From a virus (taxonomy: Duplodnaviria > Heunggongvirae > Uroviricota > Caudoviricetes): a stretch of DNA of 38,273 bases. Below the pieces are notes generated by a model. That model searched no databases. It had not been told where the DNA came from and saw only the letters and a list, made by a program, of their open reading frames with translations. Positions 5,628 through 37,620 of the stretch are shown here, one piece after another. Both the position numbers and the translations under genes were made by a program. Location of the stretch: the IMG/VR virus record IMGVR_UViG_2639762987_000013, positions 1 to 38,273 of that record; one strand, given 5' to 3'. Position 1 is the first letter of the stretch; each line of letters opens with the position of its first letter.

Positions 5628-6596
5628 TTAGTAGGTTATTTTTGTTGCGAATACTTCGCCTTTTACGATGGCTGTTATGATATTTTTAGCAACATCTTCT
5701 GATGCACCAACCTTGATAAGGTCAGTAAGTATTTTGTTATTTACTTCTTTCCGGTGAGCTTTATCCTTTGCTCTACGCTCTTCTTCGTCCTTGATTCTTT
5801 TTTCTTCTGCTATTCTGGCTTGCTCTTTTGCTTCAGCCTCGCGACGGATTCGTTCAGCCTCCTCCTGTGCTTTTCTGCGTTCTGCTTCAATTGCCGCCTG
5901 CTTTTCTCTTTCAGCTCGTTCTGCTGCCTCTTTTGCTTCGCGCTGTGCTCGTTGCTCGGCTTCAATGCGTTCACGCTCTGCACGTTCCGCTGCGGCCTTA
6001 GCTTCTGCTTCTCGCCTTGCTGCTGCTTCAATTTCGGCTTTTGCCTTTGCTTCGGCTTCTGCTCTGGCTTTCTCTTCAGCTTCTCTTTTTAAGCGTTCTT
6101 CATGCTCTCGCTTTTCCTGCTCCGCTTTGAGTCTTGCCTCTTCTCTTTGGCGGTCAAATTCGCGATCCATCAAAATCGCTATTTCATGGTCAGACTCAAT
6201 TTGCTTTGCGAGAGCTTCAGCTGCTGCCTTAGCTTCTTCTTCGGCTTTAATCCGTGCCTGTTCCTCCTCATAATCAGTAAGAGGCTGGCGCGCCTTGGCT
6301 TTCAGTTCATCAAGGCGATCGCGCACTGTCTTGCGGTTGGCATCAATTAGCTTTGGAATTTCCTTCAGTTCAGCAACAAGGTCTTTGCCAAGACCATCGA
6401 GATATGTTTTCGTTTGCGCAACTTTATACGCCAGAGAAGCGATCTCCTTTCTGCCCTTTGCCGTTGTGATATCAGGCACAAAGGACATAACTTCACGTTC
6501 AACCTTTTGAAGGATTTCTTCAATCTGGTCGGCAGACTGAAATACAGTCATTGCATTTGCTTTTTCAATAACAACTAAATCTGTTACTTCACTCAT
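5628..6596 (-). CDS. Hypothetical protein with N-terminal globular domain and about 150-aa E/A/K/R-rich single-alpha-helix-like region, 322 aa
   Basis: Long ORF; extreme compositional bias (AEAKAKAEIEAAARREAEAK...) creating artefactual ORFs in other frames. Confidence 0.6.
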   Translation of the reverse strand: MSEVTDLVVIEKANAMTVFQSADQIEEILQKVEREVMSFVPDITTAKGRKEIASLAYKVAQTKTYLDGLGKDLVAELKEIPKLIDANRKTVRDRLDELKAKARQPLTDYEEEQARIKAEEEAKAAAEALAKQIESDHEIAILMDREFDRQREEARLKAEQEKREHEERLKREAEEKARAEAEAKAKAEIEAAARREAEAKAAAERAERERIEAEQRAQREAKEAAERAEREKQAAIEAERRKAQEEAERIRREAEAKEQARIAEEKRIKDEEERRAKDKAHRKEVNNKILTDLIKVGASEDVAKNIITAIVKGEVFATKITY

Positions 6597-14329: not shown

Positions 14330-14498
14330 CCCATCCCAATCCCTTCAATACCAGAAAGAAAGCGTCGAGCGGGCTTTAACGTGCGCTAACTGCGGTCAGA
14401 AGCTGCATGTGCTGGAAGTTCACATGTGTGAGCACTGCTGCGCAGAACTGATGAGCGATCCGAATAGCTCAATGCACGAGGAAGAAGACGATGAATGA
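14322..14498 (+). CDS. ninF: NinF, 58 aa; not in ORF track
   Basis: [58 protein letters not shown] matches recalled lambda NinF. Confidence 0.65.
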
Positions 14499-15213
14499 GT
14501 TAATAAATGGCAATGCCATCAAAATGACAAGCATTGAAATCGCTGAGTTGGTTGGTAAGCGTCATGACAATGTGAAACGTACCATCGAAACGCTGGCTAA
14601 AAATGGTGTTATCCGGCTTCCTCAAATTGAGGTTTCCGAAAGAATCAATAACTTAGGGTTCAATGTTCAGTACGAGCATTACGTTTTCGAAGGCGAACAA
14701 GGTAAGCGAGACAGTATTGTCGTTGTTGCCCAGTTGTCGCCGGAATTCACCGCTCGCCTTGTTGACCGCTGGCGAGAGCTTGAAGAAGCTGCGGTTAATA
14801 TCCCCAAAACGCTACCAGAAGCGTTGCGCCTTGCTGCTGATCTTGCTGAGCAGAAAATGCAACTGGAAAACCAGCTCGCAATTGCCGCACCTAAAGTTGA
14901 GTTTGCCGATCGCGTTGGCGAGGCCAGCGGAATTTTGATTGGAAACTTTGCAAAGGTTGTCGGTATTGGTCCAAACAAACTGTTTGCGTGGATGCGCGAT
15001 CACAAAATCCTTATTGCTTCAGGTTCCCGGCGCAATGTGCCAATGCAGGAATATATGGATCGCGGCTATTTCACAGTGAAAGAAACAGCGGTCAACACAA
15101 ATCACGGAATACAGATATCGTTCACCACAAAAATCACCGGGCGTGGTCAACAGTGGCTGACCAGAAAGCTGCTCGATAACGGAATGCTGAAAGTAACAGG
15201 TGAGGCTGCTTAA
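14491..15213 (+). CDS. Phage antirepressor-like protein (Rha-type N-terminal domain + KilAC/ANT C-terminal domain), 240 aa
   Basis: N-terminal ...MTSIEIAELVGKRHDNVKRTIETL... (Rha-like); C-terminal ...KLFAWMRDHKILIASGSRRNVPMQEYMDRGYFTVKE... (KilAC-like). From memory of Pfam families. Confidence 0.7.
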   Translation: MNELINGNAIKMTSIEIAELVGKRHDNVKRTIETLAKNGVIRLPQIEVSERINNLGFNVQYEHYVFEGEQGKRDSIVVVAQLSPEFTARLVDRWRELEEAAVNIPKTLPEALRLAADLAEQKMQLENQLAIAAPKVEFADRVGEASGILIGNFAKVVGIGPNKLFAWMRDHKILIASGSRRNVPMQEYMDRGYFTVKETAVNTNHGIQISFTTKITGRGQQWLTRKLLDNGMLKVTGEAA

Positions 15214-33995: not shown

Positions 33996-34481
33996 CTATC
34001 TGATATTACTGCTACTGTTGCATGTTACCGTGTTTCCAAATCCTGAATTGCAGTTTGTATATGTGTCAACGCGTGTTGGGTAAGGTTGAGTTATAACAGG
34101 CTGGCGCGCTTTTTGCTCGATCGCTTGCATTGTGTTTACAGCCTGATAATTCAATAAAGCCTGCTGGAATGCTTGGCTTTGTGCTATTTGTTGTGCTTGT
34201 TCTTGGCTTTGTAATTGAACATAAAGATTCTGAAGTTCAAGTCTTGCCTGTGTGTCACTTATCTTGCCTTCATCGACACCTTGCCCGAGCATCTTCGCAG
34301 CAAGGACATACAGCTTAGGTGTTGGTGCTGATGCCATGCGAGAGTCGTTCTTCAAGCTGGCATCAAGGCAATTAGCCATATCGCTAAGCTTTGGATAGCG
34401 TTGCTCGCAACTTGCCTGATAGTCGCTTACTTTTGCGCACCCAGCCAGCAGAAGCGGGATAATTAACAGTGATTTTTTCAT
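33996..34481 (-). CDS. Predicted lipoprotein (signal peptide MKKSLLIIPLLLAGC, lipobox LAGC; Gln-rich helical region; Cys-containing C-terminus), 161 aa
   Basis: ATG 34481 with AAGGAG RBS; lipobox read from sequence; antisense to the late operon, in the sieA/immI slot. Confidence 0.6.
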   Translation of the reverse strand: MKKSLLIIPLLLAGCAKVSDYQASCEQRYPKLSDMANCLDASLKNDSRMASAPTPKLYVLAAKMLGQGVDEGKISDTQARLELQNLYVQLQSQEQAQQIAQSQAFQQALLNYQAVNTMQAIEQKARQPVITQPYPTRVDTYTNCNSGFGNTVTCNSSSNIR

Positions 34482-34515
34482 ATAATTAACTCTCCTTAGT
34501 TTTGCGCAGGATACC

Positions 34516-34881
34516 ATGAAAAAAGTTAACATTGGAAACGTACCAAAGATGCTCGTTCCGCTCTTTGAGAGCGGTACAATTGTGTTTTGTAGAGACTTTC
34601 CAGAATGGCAACGCCTGCATCAAAAACTTGGCGTTGACGTGCATGACTCGGACGCCAACGGAGCGTCTCATACAATGAGTAGCGAGAATGGTGTTTTGCA
34701 TGTGATAGGCGTGTTCAATGGCAAACTATCTACTATTGCCCATGAGTGCGCTCACATGGCATTCGATATCTGCTCAAGGGTAGGTGTTGATGTTGAACCA
34801 GGAAGAGCCAACGAGACTTACTGCTACTTAATGAGCAGGCTTGTTGAGTTCTGCGAGCGACATATCAAAAAGCCGGAGTGA
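34516..34881 (+). CDS. Small HExxH-motif protein (IAHECAHMAFDI), possible minimal zinc metallopeptidase, 121 aa
   Basis: HEXXH motif read from translation; stop lies in a bidirectional terminator hairpin (34871-34888). Confidence 0.5.
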   Translation: MKKVNIGNVPKMLVPLFESGTIVFCRDFPEWQRLHQKLGVDVHDSDANGASHTMSSENGVLHVIGVFNGKLSTIAHECAHMAFDICSRVGVDVEPGRANETYCYLMSRLVEFCERHIKKPE

Positions 34882-34888
34882 CCCGGCT
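34871..34888. terminator. Bidirectional intrinsic terminator between convergent genes (AGCCGG-loop-CCGGCT with T-tracts on both strands)
   Basis: Read from sequence. Confidence 0.55.
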
Positions 34889-34894
34889 TGATTA

Positions 34895-35147: not shown

Positions 35148-35172
35148 AGGTAAATGCAAAAATTAACCCACC
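35148..35172. terminator. Hairpin terminator downstream of mnt (AACCCACC-TTCA-GGTGGGTT + T-tract)
   Basis: Read from sequence. Confidence 0.5.
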
Positions 35173-35173
35173 T

Positions 35174-35425
35174 TCAGGTGGGTTTTTTGTACAAATCCTT
35201 CAGCGTATCAAACACCATCTTCTTAACAAGCTCTGACTGCTCATCAGCGATGCGTTCCGCATCGTCTCGATAGCCTGAAATTTTGGATGGCTTTGATACA
35301 GCATCAGTCACTATCTGAACTAATTCTGAATTAAGAGAGCGGCCATTGGATTTGGCTCGCTGTTTTAGTTTTTCCTTTAATTCGTAAGGTAGCCGCAGAT
35401 TAAATTGCGGGTCATCTCTTCCCAT
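35174..35425 (-). CDS. mnt: Mnt repressor (Arc/MetJ ribbon-helix-helix), 83 aa
   Basis: MGRDDPQFNLRLPYELKEKLK.RA..NGRS.NSEL.QIV.DA.SKPS...GYR.DAERIADEQSELVKKMVFDTLKDLYKK matches recalled P22 Mnt. Confidence 0.85.
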   Translation of the reverse strand: MGRDDPQFNLRLPYELKEKLKQRAKSNGRSLNSELVQIVTDAVSKPSKISGYRDDAERIADEQSELVKKMVFDTLKDLYKKPT

Positions 35426-35489
35426 TCTTGATGCCTCGCTTTTGTGAGTGGATCGGCATCTTATTATCTGCTGATTGCATCCTCAATAA

Positions 35490-35502
35490 GACCACGGTGG
35501 TC
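35490..35502. promoter_or_regulatory. O_mnt-like operator (GACCACGGTGGTC) within Pant-equivalent region upstream of tailspike
   Basis: Near-palindrome with the same CACGGTG core as the P22 mnt operator (recalled as TCCACGGTGGA). Confidence 0.5.
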
Positions 35503-35572
35503 GTATTTTTTTGATTAATAATGCATCACTGCGGCAATGCTGCGGCGATTCCTTGTATCTGGAGCAAATTAA

Positions 35573-37564
35573 ATGACAGACATTACAGCCAATGTTGTAG
35601 TGAGCATGCCTTCGCAACTCTTCACTATGGCGCGTTCTTTTAAAGCCGTAGCTAATGGCAAAATTTATATCGGTAAAATTGACACTGACCCGGTAAATCC
35701 TGATAACCAGATTCAGGTCTATGTTGAGAACGAAGATGGTTCTCACGTTCCTGTTGCACAGCCAATCGTCATCAATGCCGCTGGGTATCCAGTATATAAC
35801 GGACAGATTGCCAAATTCGTAACTGTGCAAGGCCATTCTATGGCTGTTTATGATGCATGTGGTGCGCAGCAGTTCTATTTTCCAAATGTGCTGAAGTATG
35901 ACCCGGATCAGTTAAGGCAGGAGTTAGCAAGTTCAGGTGATGATCTTGGAGATGCATTAATAGCAGTAAAACAACCATTCACCTTGTCAATAAGAAGGAC
36001 GCAGCATCAAAAAAATGCCGAGCACATTAGTGTTAGTGATTTTGGTGCAAAAGGAGACGGCATAACAGATGATACTGTAGCAATTCAAAATGCTATTAAT
36101 GCAGTACCAGAAGGGGCTATACTTGGATTTTATGGTGGTGAATTTGTTTTTGATAAGGTTGAATTGCTTAAGCCAATAACATTGGTTGGTGATGCAACGT
36201 TAATTCACAACGGATTTAGAATAAAATCTAGCAGAATACGATCACTTTTATCTGGTGTTCAGAAATGCAAGGATTACTCCGAGTCTTCAAGAGCATTTTA
36301 TTGCTATGCAAATGAAGACCAAAGAGATTATGACGATATTCAGATTTTGTTTAATAGATTTGAAGGTTTCTTTTACTCTACGGCATTTGTTGCAAAAAAC
36401 TATTATTTGGAGAATGACCCTAATTCAAGAACTGTCAAAAATACAAAAGTAATAGGATGTACATCAGTTGCTCCTGATTCTGTAAATGCCGGTCATTTTC
36501 AACATATAGGCGTTACAAATGCTGAAACATCACATAACTCAACTTATGGCGGACAAAATGCAACATCATACAACTTCATTAACCAGAATGGATTTGTAAG
36601 GATTATAGGAAATTATGACCATAACAATAGCTATGGTTCATGTGAGCTTGAGAACTCAATGGTGAGTAACTCAGTCATATCATGTAATACGTTTTCGTCA
36701 TATTTATGGGTGGATGATACAAGTAATGTTACTATTTCTGGAAATACAGTTTCATCAAGGATCAAAGTAACATCGCAAACTGACGATGTTCATAATATAA
36801 CCATATCAGCAAATACCACAAAACGGATTACTATAGAGCAATTTGGAGAATCTCCGACAGGTCTGGTATATGGTGCATTAATTTCCTGTAACACTATTAC
36901 TGGCGACAGTGATGGAAGTTCAGACATTTTATGTACGTCACTTGTTACAGGTGAAATTTCATCAAATTATTGTCATGGATCAGAAAAAAATATATCAATT
37001 GTCCGCCTGGATTCTTCTGATATAACTGTTAGAAACAATAAAGGAAACAAAGGATTACTTACAATAAGTAACGATGGTGGGAGGATAATTGAATATGGCA
37101 ATGATTCTATGGTTCTGTCTGGAAGCATAGATAGCAGACATATACATAATTTATTACAACCAGACACATCGTATTTAGATCTACCGGGGAAATATCTGCA
37201 CGGAACTAAATATACTGGCAGTATCCCCCCCGGTTCCACAGGAACTGTATCACTTCAAATACCATCAGGGGCAAGCCTTGTTTTCAGGGGTGTTTCTATA
37301 TGGGTTCTAATTAGAGATGTTAGCAATAACAATATATCGTCATTCAGAATTGATGGTTCATATAGAGTTGTTGGTGGAAGTGTTGGTCTTAGTTTTGCTG
37401 ATGCTTATTCGAAACTCGGGGTGGATGCAAACTCTATAACAGTGTCAAACAATAACAGCACTTCTGACAATATCAGCATAGCAATTAAAAACACAGATTC
37501 ATCAAAAACCCTTCAGGTTACTGTTATGCCGGAGGTTTCAAGCAGGTTAGGTATTGAGGAATAG
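35573..37564 (+). CDS. Tailspike: P22-type N-terminal head-binding domain fused to a distinct right-handed beta-helix (pectate-lyase-like) receptor-binding domain, 663 aa
   Basis: First ~110 aa ([11 protein letters not shown]...[33 protein letters not shown]......INAAG..VYNGQ......VQGHSMA.YDA.G.Q.....NVLKYDPDQ) match P22 gp9; remainder starts with beta-helix motif [22 protein letters not shown] and is Asn/Ser/Thr-rich. Confidence 0.9.
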
Positions 37565-37592
37565 CATCATATATAATTATTTTAATGTTAAT

Positions 37593-37620
37593 GCCGCCTT
37601 CTTGTTGGCGGCTTATTTGT
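37593..37620 (+). terminator. Intrinsic terminator after tailspike (GCCGCC-loop-GGCGGC + TTATTTGTG)
   Basis: Read from sequence. Confidence 0.6.

Follow-up and report, generated by a model that had tools for sequence, protein, structure and literature searches.

In phage P22 the second immunity region, immI, lies between the gp16 gene and the tailspike gene (gene 9) and is ordered mnt, Pmnt/Pant, O_arc/O_mnt, arc, sar, ant, t_ant, gene 9. P22-like phages that carry mnt without arc and ant have been described since the genome papers of ST64T and epsilon34, and Mnt-only 'ant morons' have been described in ST64T, ST104 and Para1 (Villafane 2008, PMC2629481) and in phage L (Zaworski 2020, PMC8022706). 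The same layout is present in the records of ST160, SE1, Gally and vB_EcoP-720R6. The genome paper of phage L leaves the reason for the retention of mnt unanswered (PMC8022706). Such an orphan Mnt is a small and tractable case of a repressor outliving its target, and a mnt deletion and RNA-seq data already exist for Gally. Here we describe the IMG/VR virus record IMGVR_UViG_2639762987_000013, a stretch of 38,273 nucleotides that is referred to in its entirety as the window, and within it the 147-bp spacer (35426-35572) between a mnt gene (35174-35425, minus strand) and a tailspike gene (35573-37564, plus strand). An earlier note on this DNA had proposed that an operator in the spacer places a tailspike promoter under the control of Mnt, or alternatively that the locus is a deletion remnant; the underlying observation is real, and its interpretation is partly supported. 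By sequence comparison, the locus is a cut-down immI of a P22-like E. coli prophage, in which Mnt, Pmnt and the operator have been kept and the antirepressor genes and their promoter are gone. The Mnt-only layout is already known; the class of Mnt defined by Gln6 and the half-site GACCAC, the evidence for selection and the loss of Pant are, as far as could be found, not spelled out in the literature, and are modest refinements. Together they narrow the question of mnt retention, in that the gene is under purifying selection, belongs to a distinct specificity class and has lost the promoter that its P22 counterpart controls.

Layout and relatives of the mnt-tailspike interval

The mnt product is a protein of 83 amino acids with an N-terminal ribbon-helix-helix domain (Pfam Arc, PF03869, 2.8e-22, residues 3-50) and a C-terminal coiled-coil tetramerisation domain (Pfam Repressor_Mnt, PF11423, 2.2e-18, residues 53-80), and it matches the solved structures of P22 Mnt in the PDB (1mnt, 2.8e-34; 1qey, 3.1e-12). 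In alignments it is 76% identical to Mnt of P22, 92% identical to that of ST160 and 100% identical to that of phage Gally. The open reading frame (ORF) that begins 147 bp from the mnt ATG, with its own ATG at 35573, has 663 codons and encodes a complete P22-type head-binding domain (Pfam Head_binding, 4.4e-66), which identifies it as the tailspike gene, followed by a low-GC, pectate-lyase-like receptor-binding part (Pfam Pect-lyase_RHGA_epim). When P22 Arc and Ant were compared with the whole window by tblastn, no match was found other than the ribbon-helix-helix domain of Mnt itself. The positions given in the earlier note for mnt and for a palindrome within the spacer were thus borne out by Pfam, PDB and alignment, and the absence of arc and ant by tblastn. 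The alignment with P22 immI that had been suggested as a check revealed that both ends of the spacer are homologous to P22 and that approximately 1.3 kb of P22-equivalent DNA, containing arc, sar, ant and t_ant, is absent, with O_mnt plus a few bases joined to the 47-nt leader of gene 9. This leader (35526-35572, plus strand), which contains the ribosome-binding site GGAG at 35561-35564, aligns with positions 5933-5979 of the P22 locus (L004) and 2894-2940 of the HK620 locus (L003). From the alignment, the locus is a deletion derivative of a P22-type immI.

As such, the locus is like P22 immI in its position between the gp16 gene and the tailspike gene, in its Mnt, in the geometry of Pmnt and operator, in the 17-bp palindromic architecture of the operator and in the gene-9 leader, and differs from it in lacking arc, sar, ant, the ant terminator and a usable Pant, and in combining GACCAC with Gln6 where P22 combines GTCCAC with His6. 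It has the features by which Mnt-only ant morons are recognised, namely mnt and its operator without arc or ant, a tailspike gene directly downstream and a location between the gp16 gene and gene 9. With the morons of ST64T, ST104, Para1, L, SE1 and ST160 it shares a tailspike start 135-147 bp after mnt, the Gln6 N-terminus of Mnt, the operator arms and a decayed Pant. In contrast to these morons, to which the spacer has about 86% nucleotide identity, the window has a T-run and approximately 12 extra bp after the operator, a different receptor-binding part of the tailspike, and E. coli as host. Gally (OV696608; Misson 2023, PMC9928086), which resides in E. coli LF82, is 96% identical over the stretch that runs from mnt to the tailspike start and includes the spacer, and among the relatives it alone has expression and knockout data; it differs in having A rather than G at the operator centre, in the gene upstream of mnt and in the body of the tailspike. 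The interval between gp16 and gene 9 in HK620 shares the tailspike leader and the flanking genes (hkcC-like and orf59a-like), but retains only terminator-bearing remnants of mnt and ant, with no mnt ORF and no operator.

To place the window among its relatives, 97 mnt loci were collected from phage records, E. coli genomes, one-per-species genomes and IMG/VR, the one-genome-per-species scan contributing nine loci that were mainly useful for Pluralibacter, Pectobacterium and Phlomobacter. Gln6 Mnt with the N-terminus of the window protein, MGRDDPQFNLRLP (MGRDDPQ), is encoded in 70 of the 97, all of them orphans without arc and ant and with a tailspike start downstream, whereas every Mnt with the P22/His6-type N-terminus MARDDPHFNFRMP has arc downstream, and ant as well wherever the contig extends far enough. 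The distance from orphan mnt to tailspike is mostly 135-148 bp; about a dozen loci have 419-431 bp instead, and a single locus 922 bp. Of 5,426 complete E. coli genomes, 112 contain 80% or more of the junction of mnt, spacer and tailspike, which is 100% identical in LD67-1. There is also a distant orphan group, comprising IME10, Sf101 and VSe13 (50-59% identity), in which mnt adjoins the tailspike gene, the palindrome is TACC-N7-GGTA and the reading strand of Mnt is different.

The mnt operator and the specificity of Mnt

The palindrome GACCACGGTGGTC at 35490-35502 has no second match in the 38-kb window even when two to three mismatches are allowed, a level at which shuffling leads one to expect about one match by chance; for an exact match the expectation is about 0.005 (2 x 38273 / 4^12). 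Positional homology is a stronger argument for the identity of the operator than rarity. Positions 35479-35507 (ATCCTCAATAAGACCACGGTGGTC--GTATT) align base for base with ATTCTCAATAGGTCCACGGTGGACCTGTATT of P22, the annotated mnt operator of that phage, in agreement with the likeness that the earlier note had reported. By this homology the predicted Mnt operator of the window, O_mnt, is the 17-bp site AAGACCACGGTGGTCGT at 35488-35504, with the palindrome as its core. Its centre (35496) is 71 bp from the mnt ATG, compared with 66 bp in P22 (4546 to 4612), with homologous flanks, and mnt diverges from the 17-bp operator as expected of an immI. The centre falls at approximately -45 of Pmnt and +8 of the former Pant. 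This site departs from its P22 counterpart, AGGTCCACGGTGGACCT, mainly by a single symmetric substitution (left arm, T to A; right arm, A to T), so that the half-site is GACCAC in the window and GTCCAC in P22. The optimum half-site of P22 Mnt is GTGGACC (PMC2726951); in the same orientation the half-sites of the window read GTGGTCG or GTGGTCT.

The earlier note had named absence of the palindrome from related phages that retain mnt as grounds for rejecting it, and the palindrome is present in these relatives, with arms that are nearly invariant among 34 spacer haplotypes. Across the 12 arm positions the mean pairwise diversity is 0.029, all changes being singletons, compared with 0.166 in the rest of the spacer and 0.747 at the centre base; both arms are intact in 28 of the 34 haplotypes, and in the remaining six one arm differs at a single position. 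A free centre flanked by invariant arms is the signature of a binding site for a protein that contacts two half-sites. The centre base itself (35496) is G, T, A or C in 12, 10, 7 and 5 haplotypes, respectively, is the most variable position of the entire spacer and differs even between otherwise identical haplotypes, which suggests recurrent mutation at the palindrome centre beyond mere relaxed constraint.

No second Mnt operator was found elsewhere in the window at three or fewer mismatches, including upstream of the antirepressor-like gene at 14491-15213. The product of this gene, which the earlier note had correctly recognised as of the KilAC type, has Phage_pRha and KilAC (ANT) domains, belongs to PHROG 63 and is encoded by a gene of the same length as the Gally gene annotated 'anti-repressor protein Roi'. 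In related phages, too, a search of IMG/VR for the exact pattern returned no second operator, the matches being either at the immI position or in unrelated, mostly high-GC contigs that resemble chance matches.

The base-contacting residues of Mnt are reportedly Arg2, His6, Asn8 and Arg10, in the list of Knight and Sauer from 1989. In the alignment, Arg2, Asn8 and Arg10 are unchanged in the window protein, and His6 is replaced by Gln. The symmetric operator change is always accompanied by Gln6, in at least five lineages. Among the collected loci, Gln6 is paired with GACCAC, or with A as the fourth base of the half-site, in independent settings, namely all orphans of E. coli and Salmonella phages (GACCAC), MS2 LVA and the Phlomobacter locus (ATCAC or GACCAC), the more distant Mnt-like proteins of L131 and L160, and three IMG/VR contigs (L105, L158 and L169), whereas His6 is paired with GTCCAC in P22, epsilon34, UPF_BP1, an E. 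coli prophage, Pluralibacter and Pectobacterium. In each of the three contigs immI is complete: the gene for a Gln6 Mnt-like protein is accompanied by the operator AATAAGACCACGGTGGTCTCAT, by an intact Pant that reads TTGACA-17-CATTAT or CATCAT, and by arc and ant. The nearest isolate to them is Erwinia phage Midgardsormr38. These complete cassettes occupy 60-1400 in L105, 2100-3710 in L158 and 6926-8531 in L169; the Mnt-like protein of the latter two is 128-137 amino acids long, depending on the choice of in-frame start, and its C-terminal part is unlike P22 Mnt. In the literature residue 6 is described as the 'master residue' of Mnt, where one substitution alters which bases are preferred at two neighbouring positions of the operator (PMC1184061). 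The reading strand of Mnt with Gln6, PQFNLR (residues 5-10 of the mature protein), is identical to that of Arc. The half-site of the Gln6 class also gains AGA, like the TAGA boxes of Arc.

There is therefore strong indirect evidence that Gln6 and GACCAC define a natural specificity class of Mnt, and that the palindrome is the cognate operator of the window Mnt, which would be expected to bind AAGACCACNGTGGTCT. The predicted operators of the two classes are AAGACCACGGTGGTCTT for Gln6 Mnt and the P22 site given above for the His6 type. Variants of Mnt with altered specificity at residue 6, and Arc/Mnt hybrids, are said to have been engineered by Youderian in 1983, Raumann in 1995, Silbaq in 2002 and Man in 2004. 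The exchange of His6 for Gln with a symmetric change in the operator would be the natural counterpart of these classic mutants and hybrids, in that the same residue and the same operator positions are changed and the resulting strand is that of Arc. In contrast to the laboratory variants, the predicted pair in the window is natural, fixed and symmetric.

Comparison of mnt genes points to selection on the protein as well as on its site. Between the window and ST160 there are 21 synonymous and nine non-synonymous changes, a ratio of non-synonymous to synonymous rates (dN/dS) of 0.095, and the ratio between the window and L076 is 0.078. Orphan mnt is intact in 68 of 70 loci; the two exceptions have a stop at codon 53, with Pro13 altered in both and, in one of them (L083), a mutation in an operator arm. 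On these substitution patterns, mnt and the operator arms are under purifying selection, which makes it unlikely that the module is dead. Of the deletion remnant proposed earlier, the deletion stands, and the notion of an inert remnant does not, given dN/dS of about 0.1 and conserved arms.

Promoters in the spacer and the possible role of Mnt

Promoters were called by consensus scoring with a simple sigma-70 position weight matrix (PWM) of hand-set base frequencies, which recovers the annotated P22 promoters Pant (TTGACA-17-TATATT, score 16.0) and, on the opposite strand, Pmnt (TTGAGA-17-TATCAT, score 13.6). The sole good site in the spacer is a predicted Pmnt at 35458-35486 on the minus strand, homologous to P22 Pmnt, with a -35 hexamer TTGAGG (35486-35481), a 17-bp separation, a -10 hexamer TAAGAT (35463-35458) and a start near 35451. 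Its score of 11.0 exceeds that of about 99% of random 167-nt windows from the phage, and a Pmnt is found at the same position in every orphan locus, reading TTGTGG-17-TATGAT in ST160 and L. The position of the operator centre at about -45 of the predicted start is equal to that in P22, where the corresponding coordinates are 4612 and about 4567. On the plus strand, positional alignment with P22 Pant identifies a decayed equivalent at 35453-35481, with TCGGCA (35453-35458) and TGCATC (35476-35481) separated by 17 bp, in which both key -10 bases, A at -11 and T at -7, have been lost. Relatives read TGCATC, TATATC or TGTATC at the -10 equivalent, always without T at -7. The best rightward sigma-70 site in the spacer scores 5.2, below the random-window median of 6.8, compared with 16.0 for the strong Pant of P22; the Pant equivalent is not among the three best rightward sites, and a separate promoter scan of the spacer returned no rightward promoter. 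Since complete Gln6-class cassettes with an intact Pant exist, we read the decay or inactivation of Pant as having followed the loss of arc and ant.

Gally provides the expression data against which these predictions can be weighed. Its mnt RNA is at log2 about 3.7, the prophage background, in lysogeny broth (LB), about 7.0 in Dulbecco's modified Eagle medium (DMEM) and about 9 in macrophages, a rise of about 40-fold (PMC9928086). Over the same conditions its tailspike RNA goes from 3.9 to 5.65 and then to 6.7 to 7.8, about 14-fold in macrophages, in which the upstream late genes, encoding the gp16-like and other injection proteins, are at background (PMC9928086). Tailspike RNA can therefore arise in the prophage state without the late operon. 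Repressor and supposed target are however co-induced, rather than anticorrelated as would be expected. The claim of the earlier note that a Mnt-controlled promoter feeds the tailspike gene is not supported, on account of the decayed Pant hexamers and low rightward scores; its further suggestion of lysogenic-state tailspike transcription under Mnt gains from the prophage-state tailspike RNA of Gally and loses by the joint rise of mnt. A Gally lysogen deleted for mnt was obtained by recombineering and survives in macrophages as the wild type does (PMC9928086). A viable deletion with no reported phenotype fits the absence of any antirepressor held down by Mnt, the Roi-like KilAC protein included. 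Five genes at the tailspike end of Gally rise together in DMEM and macrophages regardless of strand (PMC9928086, S1 Table), which looks like relief of regional silencing and not the action of one promoter. Among the genes most induced in macrophages is GALLYPH_13 (minus strand), which occupies the position of window 33996-34532 (blastn match 33997-34505), and the adjacent GALLYPH_14 (plus strand), a different gene from the hkcC-like one of the window, is induced still more.

It is probable, to our judgement, that what is left in the spacer is the stump of the control region of a P22-type immI, within a Mnt-only ant moron in which Mnt acts in cis near Pmnt. Conservation and covariation indirectly suggest that Mnt would bind O_mnt as a tetramer, and its effect on its own promoter region may be to autoregulate Pmnt, with either sign, or to block residual rightward initiation or read-through by occlusion, or both. 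The tailspike would then be made chiefly by antiterminated read-through of the late operon and not from a Mnt-gated promoter, as in the view of P22 summarised by Villafane 2008 (PMC2629481). Mnt may additionally act in trans and keep Pant silent in an incoming phage whose operator belongs to the same class. Several points weigh against this interpretation. Operator binding and promoter starts are predictions drawn from sequence comparison and consensus scoring, and a dead Pant leaves no explained selective benefit for an operator in cis. In P22, the stimulation of Pmnt by Mnt is viewed as relief of competition from Pant, a mechanism that would no longer apply where Pant has decayed. Furthermore, the Gally RNA-seq data imply some rightward transcription into gene 9 from within or just upstream of the region, and mnt is at background in LB-grown lysogens.

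A reading we consider unlikely, though the best placed of the alternatives, is that a residual Pant-type promoter fires rightward into the tailspike gene and that Mnt, bound at +8, represses it, and so gates tailspike synthesis in the prophage state or early in infection. The operator lies exactly where a start from the former Pant would be blocked and is kept by selection, and this reading would also fit the Gally tailspike RNA, which in macrophages reaches log2 7.8 from a background level with the late genes upstream still silent. It is difficult to reconcile with hexamers that lack A-11 and T-7, with a best rightward score below the random median and with a -10 equivalent that drifts between lineages. 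In Gally, moreover, mnt and tailspike rise together, and the strongly induced plus-strand gene just upstream could supply read-through.

Still less probable is a role that is principally in trans, in which orphan Mnt silences Pant of superinfecting Gln6/GACCAC phages, guarding the prophage against induction by their antirepressor, and the cis operator is only autoregulatory. In favour of such a role, complete Gln6 cassettes that combine the same operator and an intact Pant with arc and ant exist in L105, L158 and L169, cross-induction of other prophages by antirepressors is known (PMC7380047), and mnt is under purifying selection. However, a complete Gln6 immI was not found in the 5,426 E. coli genomes or in phage isolates, the nearest relative being an Erwinia phage, mnt RNA is at background in Gally lysogens grown in LB, and it would be left unexplained why the arms of the cis operator are so tightly conserved. 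We give a similarly low probability to a more ambitious proposal, that orphan Mnt and O_mnt form an active switch that responds to the environment, being off in LB but strongly on in DMEM and in macrophages, and that gates the tailspike depolymerase and neighbouring morons independently of the late operon, and that the second Mnt class is insulated from P22-type immI. If true, a virion enzyme would have a role in the prophage state, and Mnt a job beyond holding down an antirepressor.

Very improbable is the reading that the palindrome, with the seven T that follow it (35506-35512, plus strand), is not a protein-binding site but an intrinsic terminator that bars non-antiterminated rightward transcripts from the tailspike gene. 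The terminator scan did flag the site (5-bp stem, 3-nt loop, seven T), in a region that already has two bidirectional terminators and another plus-strand hairpin, and the HK620 interval has three annotated terminators. An intrinsic terminator would have a stable, GC-rich hairpin and a conserved U-run; here the hairpin reaches only -6.3 kcal/mol, and the T-run is specific to a sub-lineage, being missing in ST160, L and E189-type spacers, all of which retain the palindrome. The sequence of the arms is conserved and covaries with residue 6 of Mnt, and one-sided arm mutations are uncompensated. At most, palindrome and T-run may form a weak added barrier in this sub-lineage. A non-functional remnant of a degrading immI, which is listed as one possibility for phage L (PMC8022706) and would fit the loss of arc, sar, ant and Pant and the wild-type behaviour of the Gally mnt deletion in the one reported assay, macrophage survival (PMC9928086), is most unlikely in view of the low dN/dS with 21 synonymous changes, the 68 of 70 intact orphan ORFs, the conserved arms around a free centre and the co-evolution of protein and operator in IME10, Sf101 and VSe13.

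Hairpins, terminators and neighbouring genes

An inverted repeat GATGCC...GGCATC with a short inner stem lies at 35430-35460 (-13.9 kcal/mol on the plus strand), overlapping both the mnt Shine-Dalgarno sequence (GAGG, the complement of 35434-35437) and the -10 and discriminator of Pmnt. It is nearly invariant among the 34 haplotypes, and is present in the IME10/Sf101 orphan group and absent from P22. Two differences between the window and ST160-type spacers preserve its pairing only as G-U on the plus strand. Either a regulator may bind the repeat, or the plus-strand RNA may form a hairpin there. Within the tailspike leader, a hairpin at 35529-35545 is conserved in P22, HK620, ST160 and Gally in a consensus fold, with one-sided arm differences in which pairing is kept by wobble. 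No known RNA family, such as sar, matched the spacer at the Rfam gathering score, and at E<1 there was terminator-like noise alone. The terminator scan found a bidirectional intrinsic terminator at 35165-35184 (AACCCACCTTCAGGTGGGTT with T-runs on both strands), which overlaps the mnt stop codon and is equivalent to the tMNT annotated in HK620, and a further bidirectional terminator at 34870-34889.

Upstream of mnt, the gene at 33996-34532 (minus strand) encodes a 178-amino-acid protein of unknown function (PHROG 6067) with a lipoprotein-type signal, LLAGC, and overlaps head-to-head by 17 bp with the hkcC-like gene at 34516-34881 (plus strand; PHROG 1365). In the four loci L089-L092, a His6-type mnt is followed, between mnt and the tailspike gene, by a different ribbon-helix-helix gene (85 amino acids, on the mnt strand), a short Arc-like ORF, a 67-amino-acid Cys-rich ORF and ant; this is a second, unrelated immI-like cassette inserted beside mnt.

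The longer orphan spacers were considered as a clue to rightward transcription and rejected as uninformative, that of 922 bp being due to an insertion of IS1 in the tailspike gene and those of about 424 bp to replacement of the tailspike module. In the 419-431 bp spacers (L023, L042, L053, L070-L074, L079, L083 and L088), the old tailspike start and a few codons survive (ATGACAGATATTA...), followed by approximately 280 bp of AT-rich DNA and then a different tailspike gene with its own leader; the surviving codons place the recombination breakpoint just within the head-binding domain. In the window tailspike, the head-binding part is 94-96% identical to those of Gally and HK620 and the remainder is not, and GC content is 0.33-0.39 over 36000-37600, compared with 43-51% upstream, a pattern that fits a recent swap of the depolymerase module.

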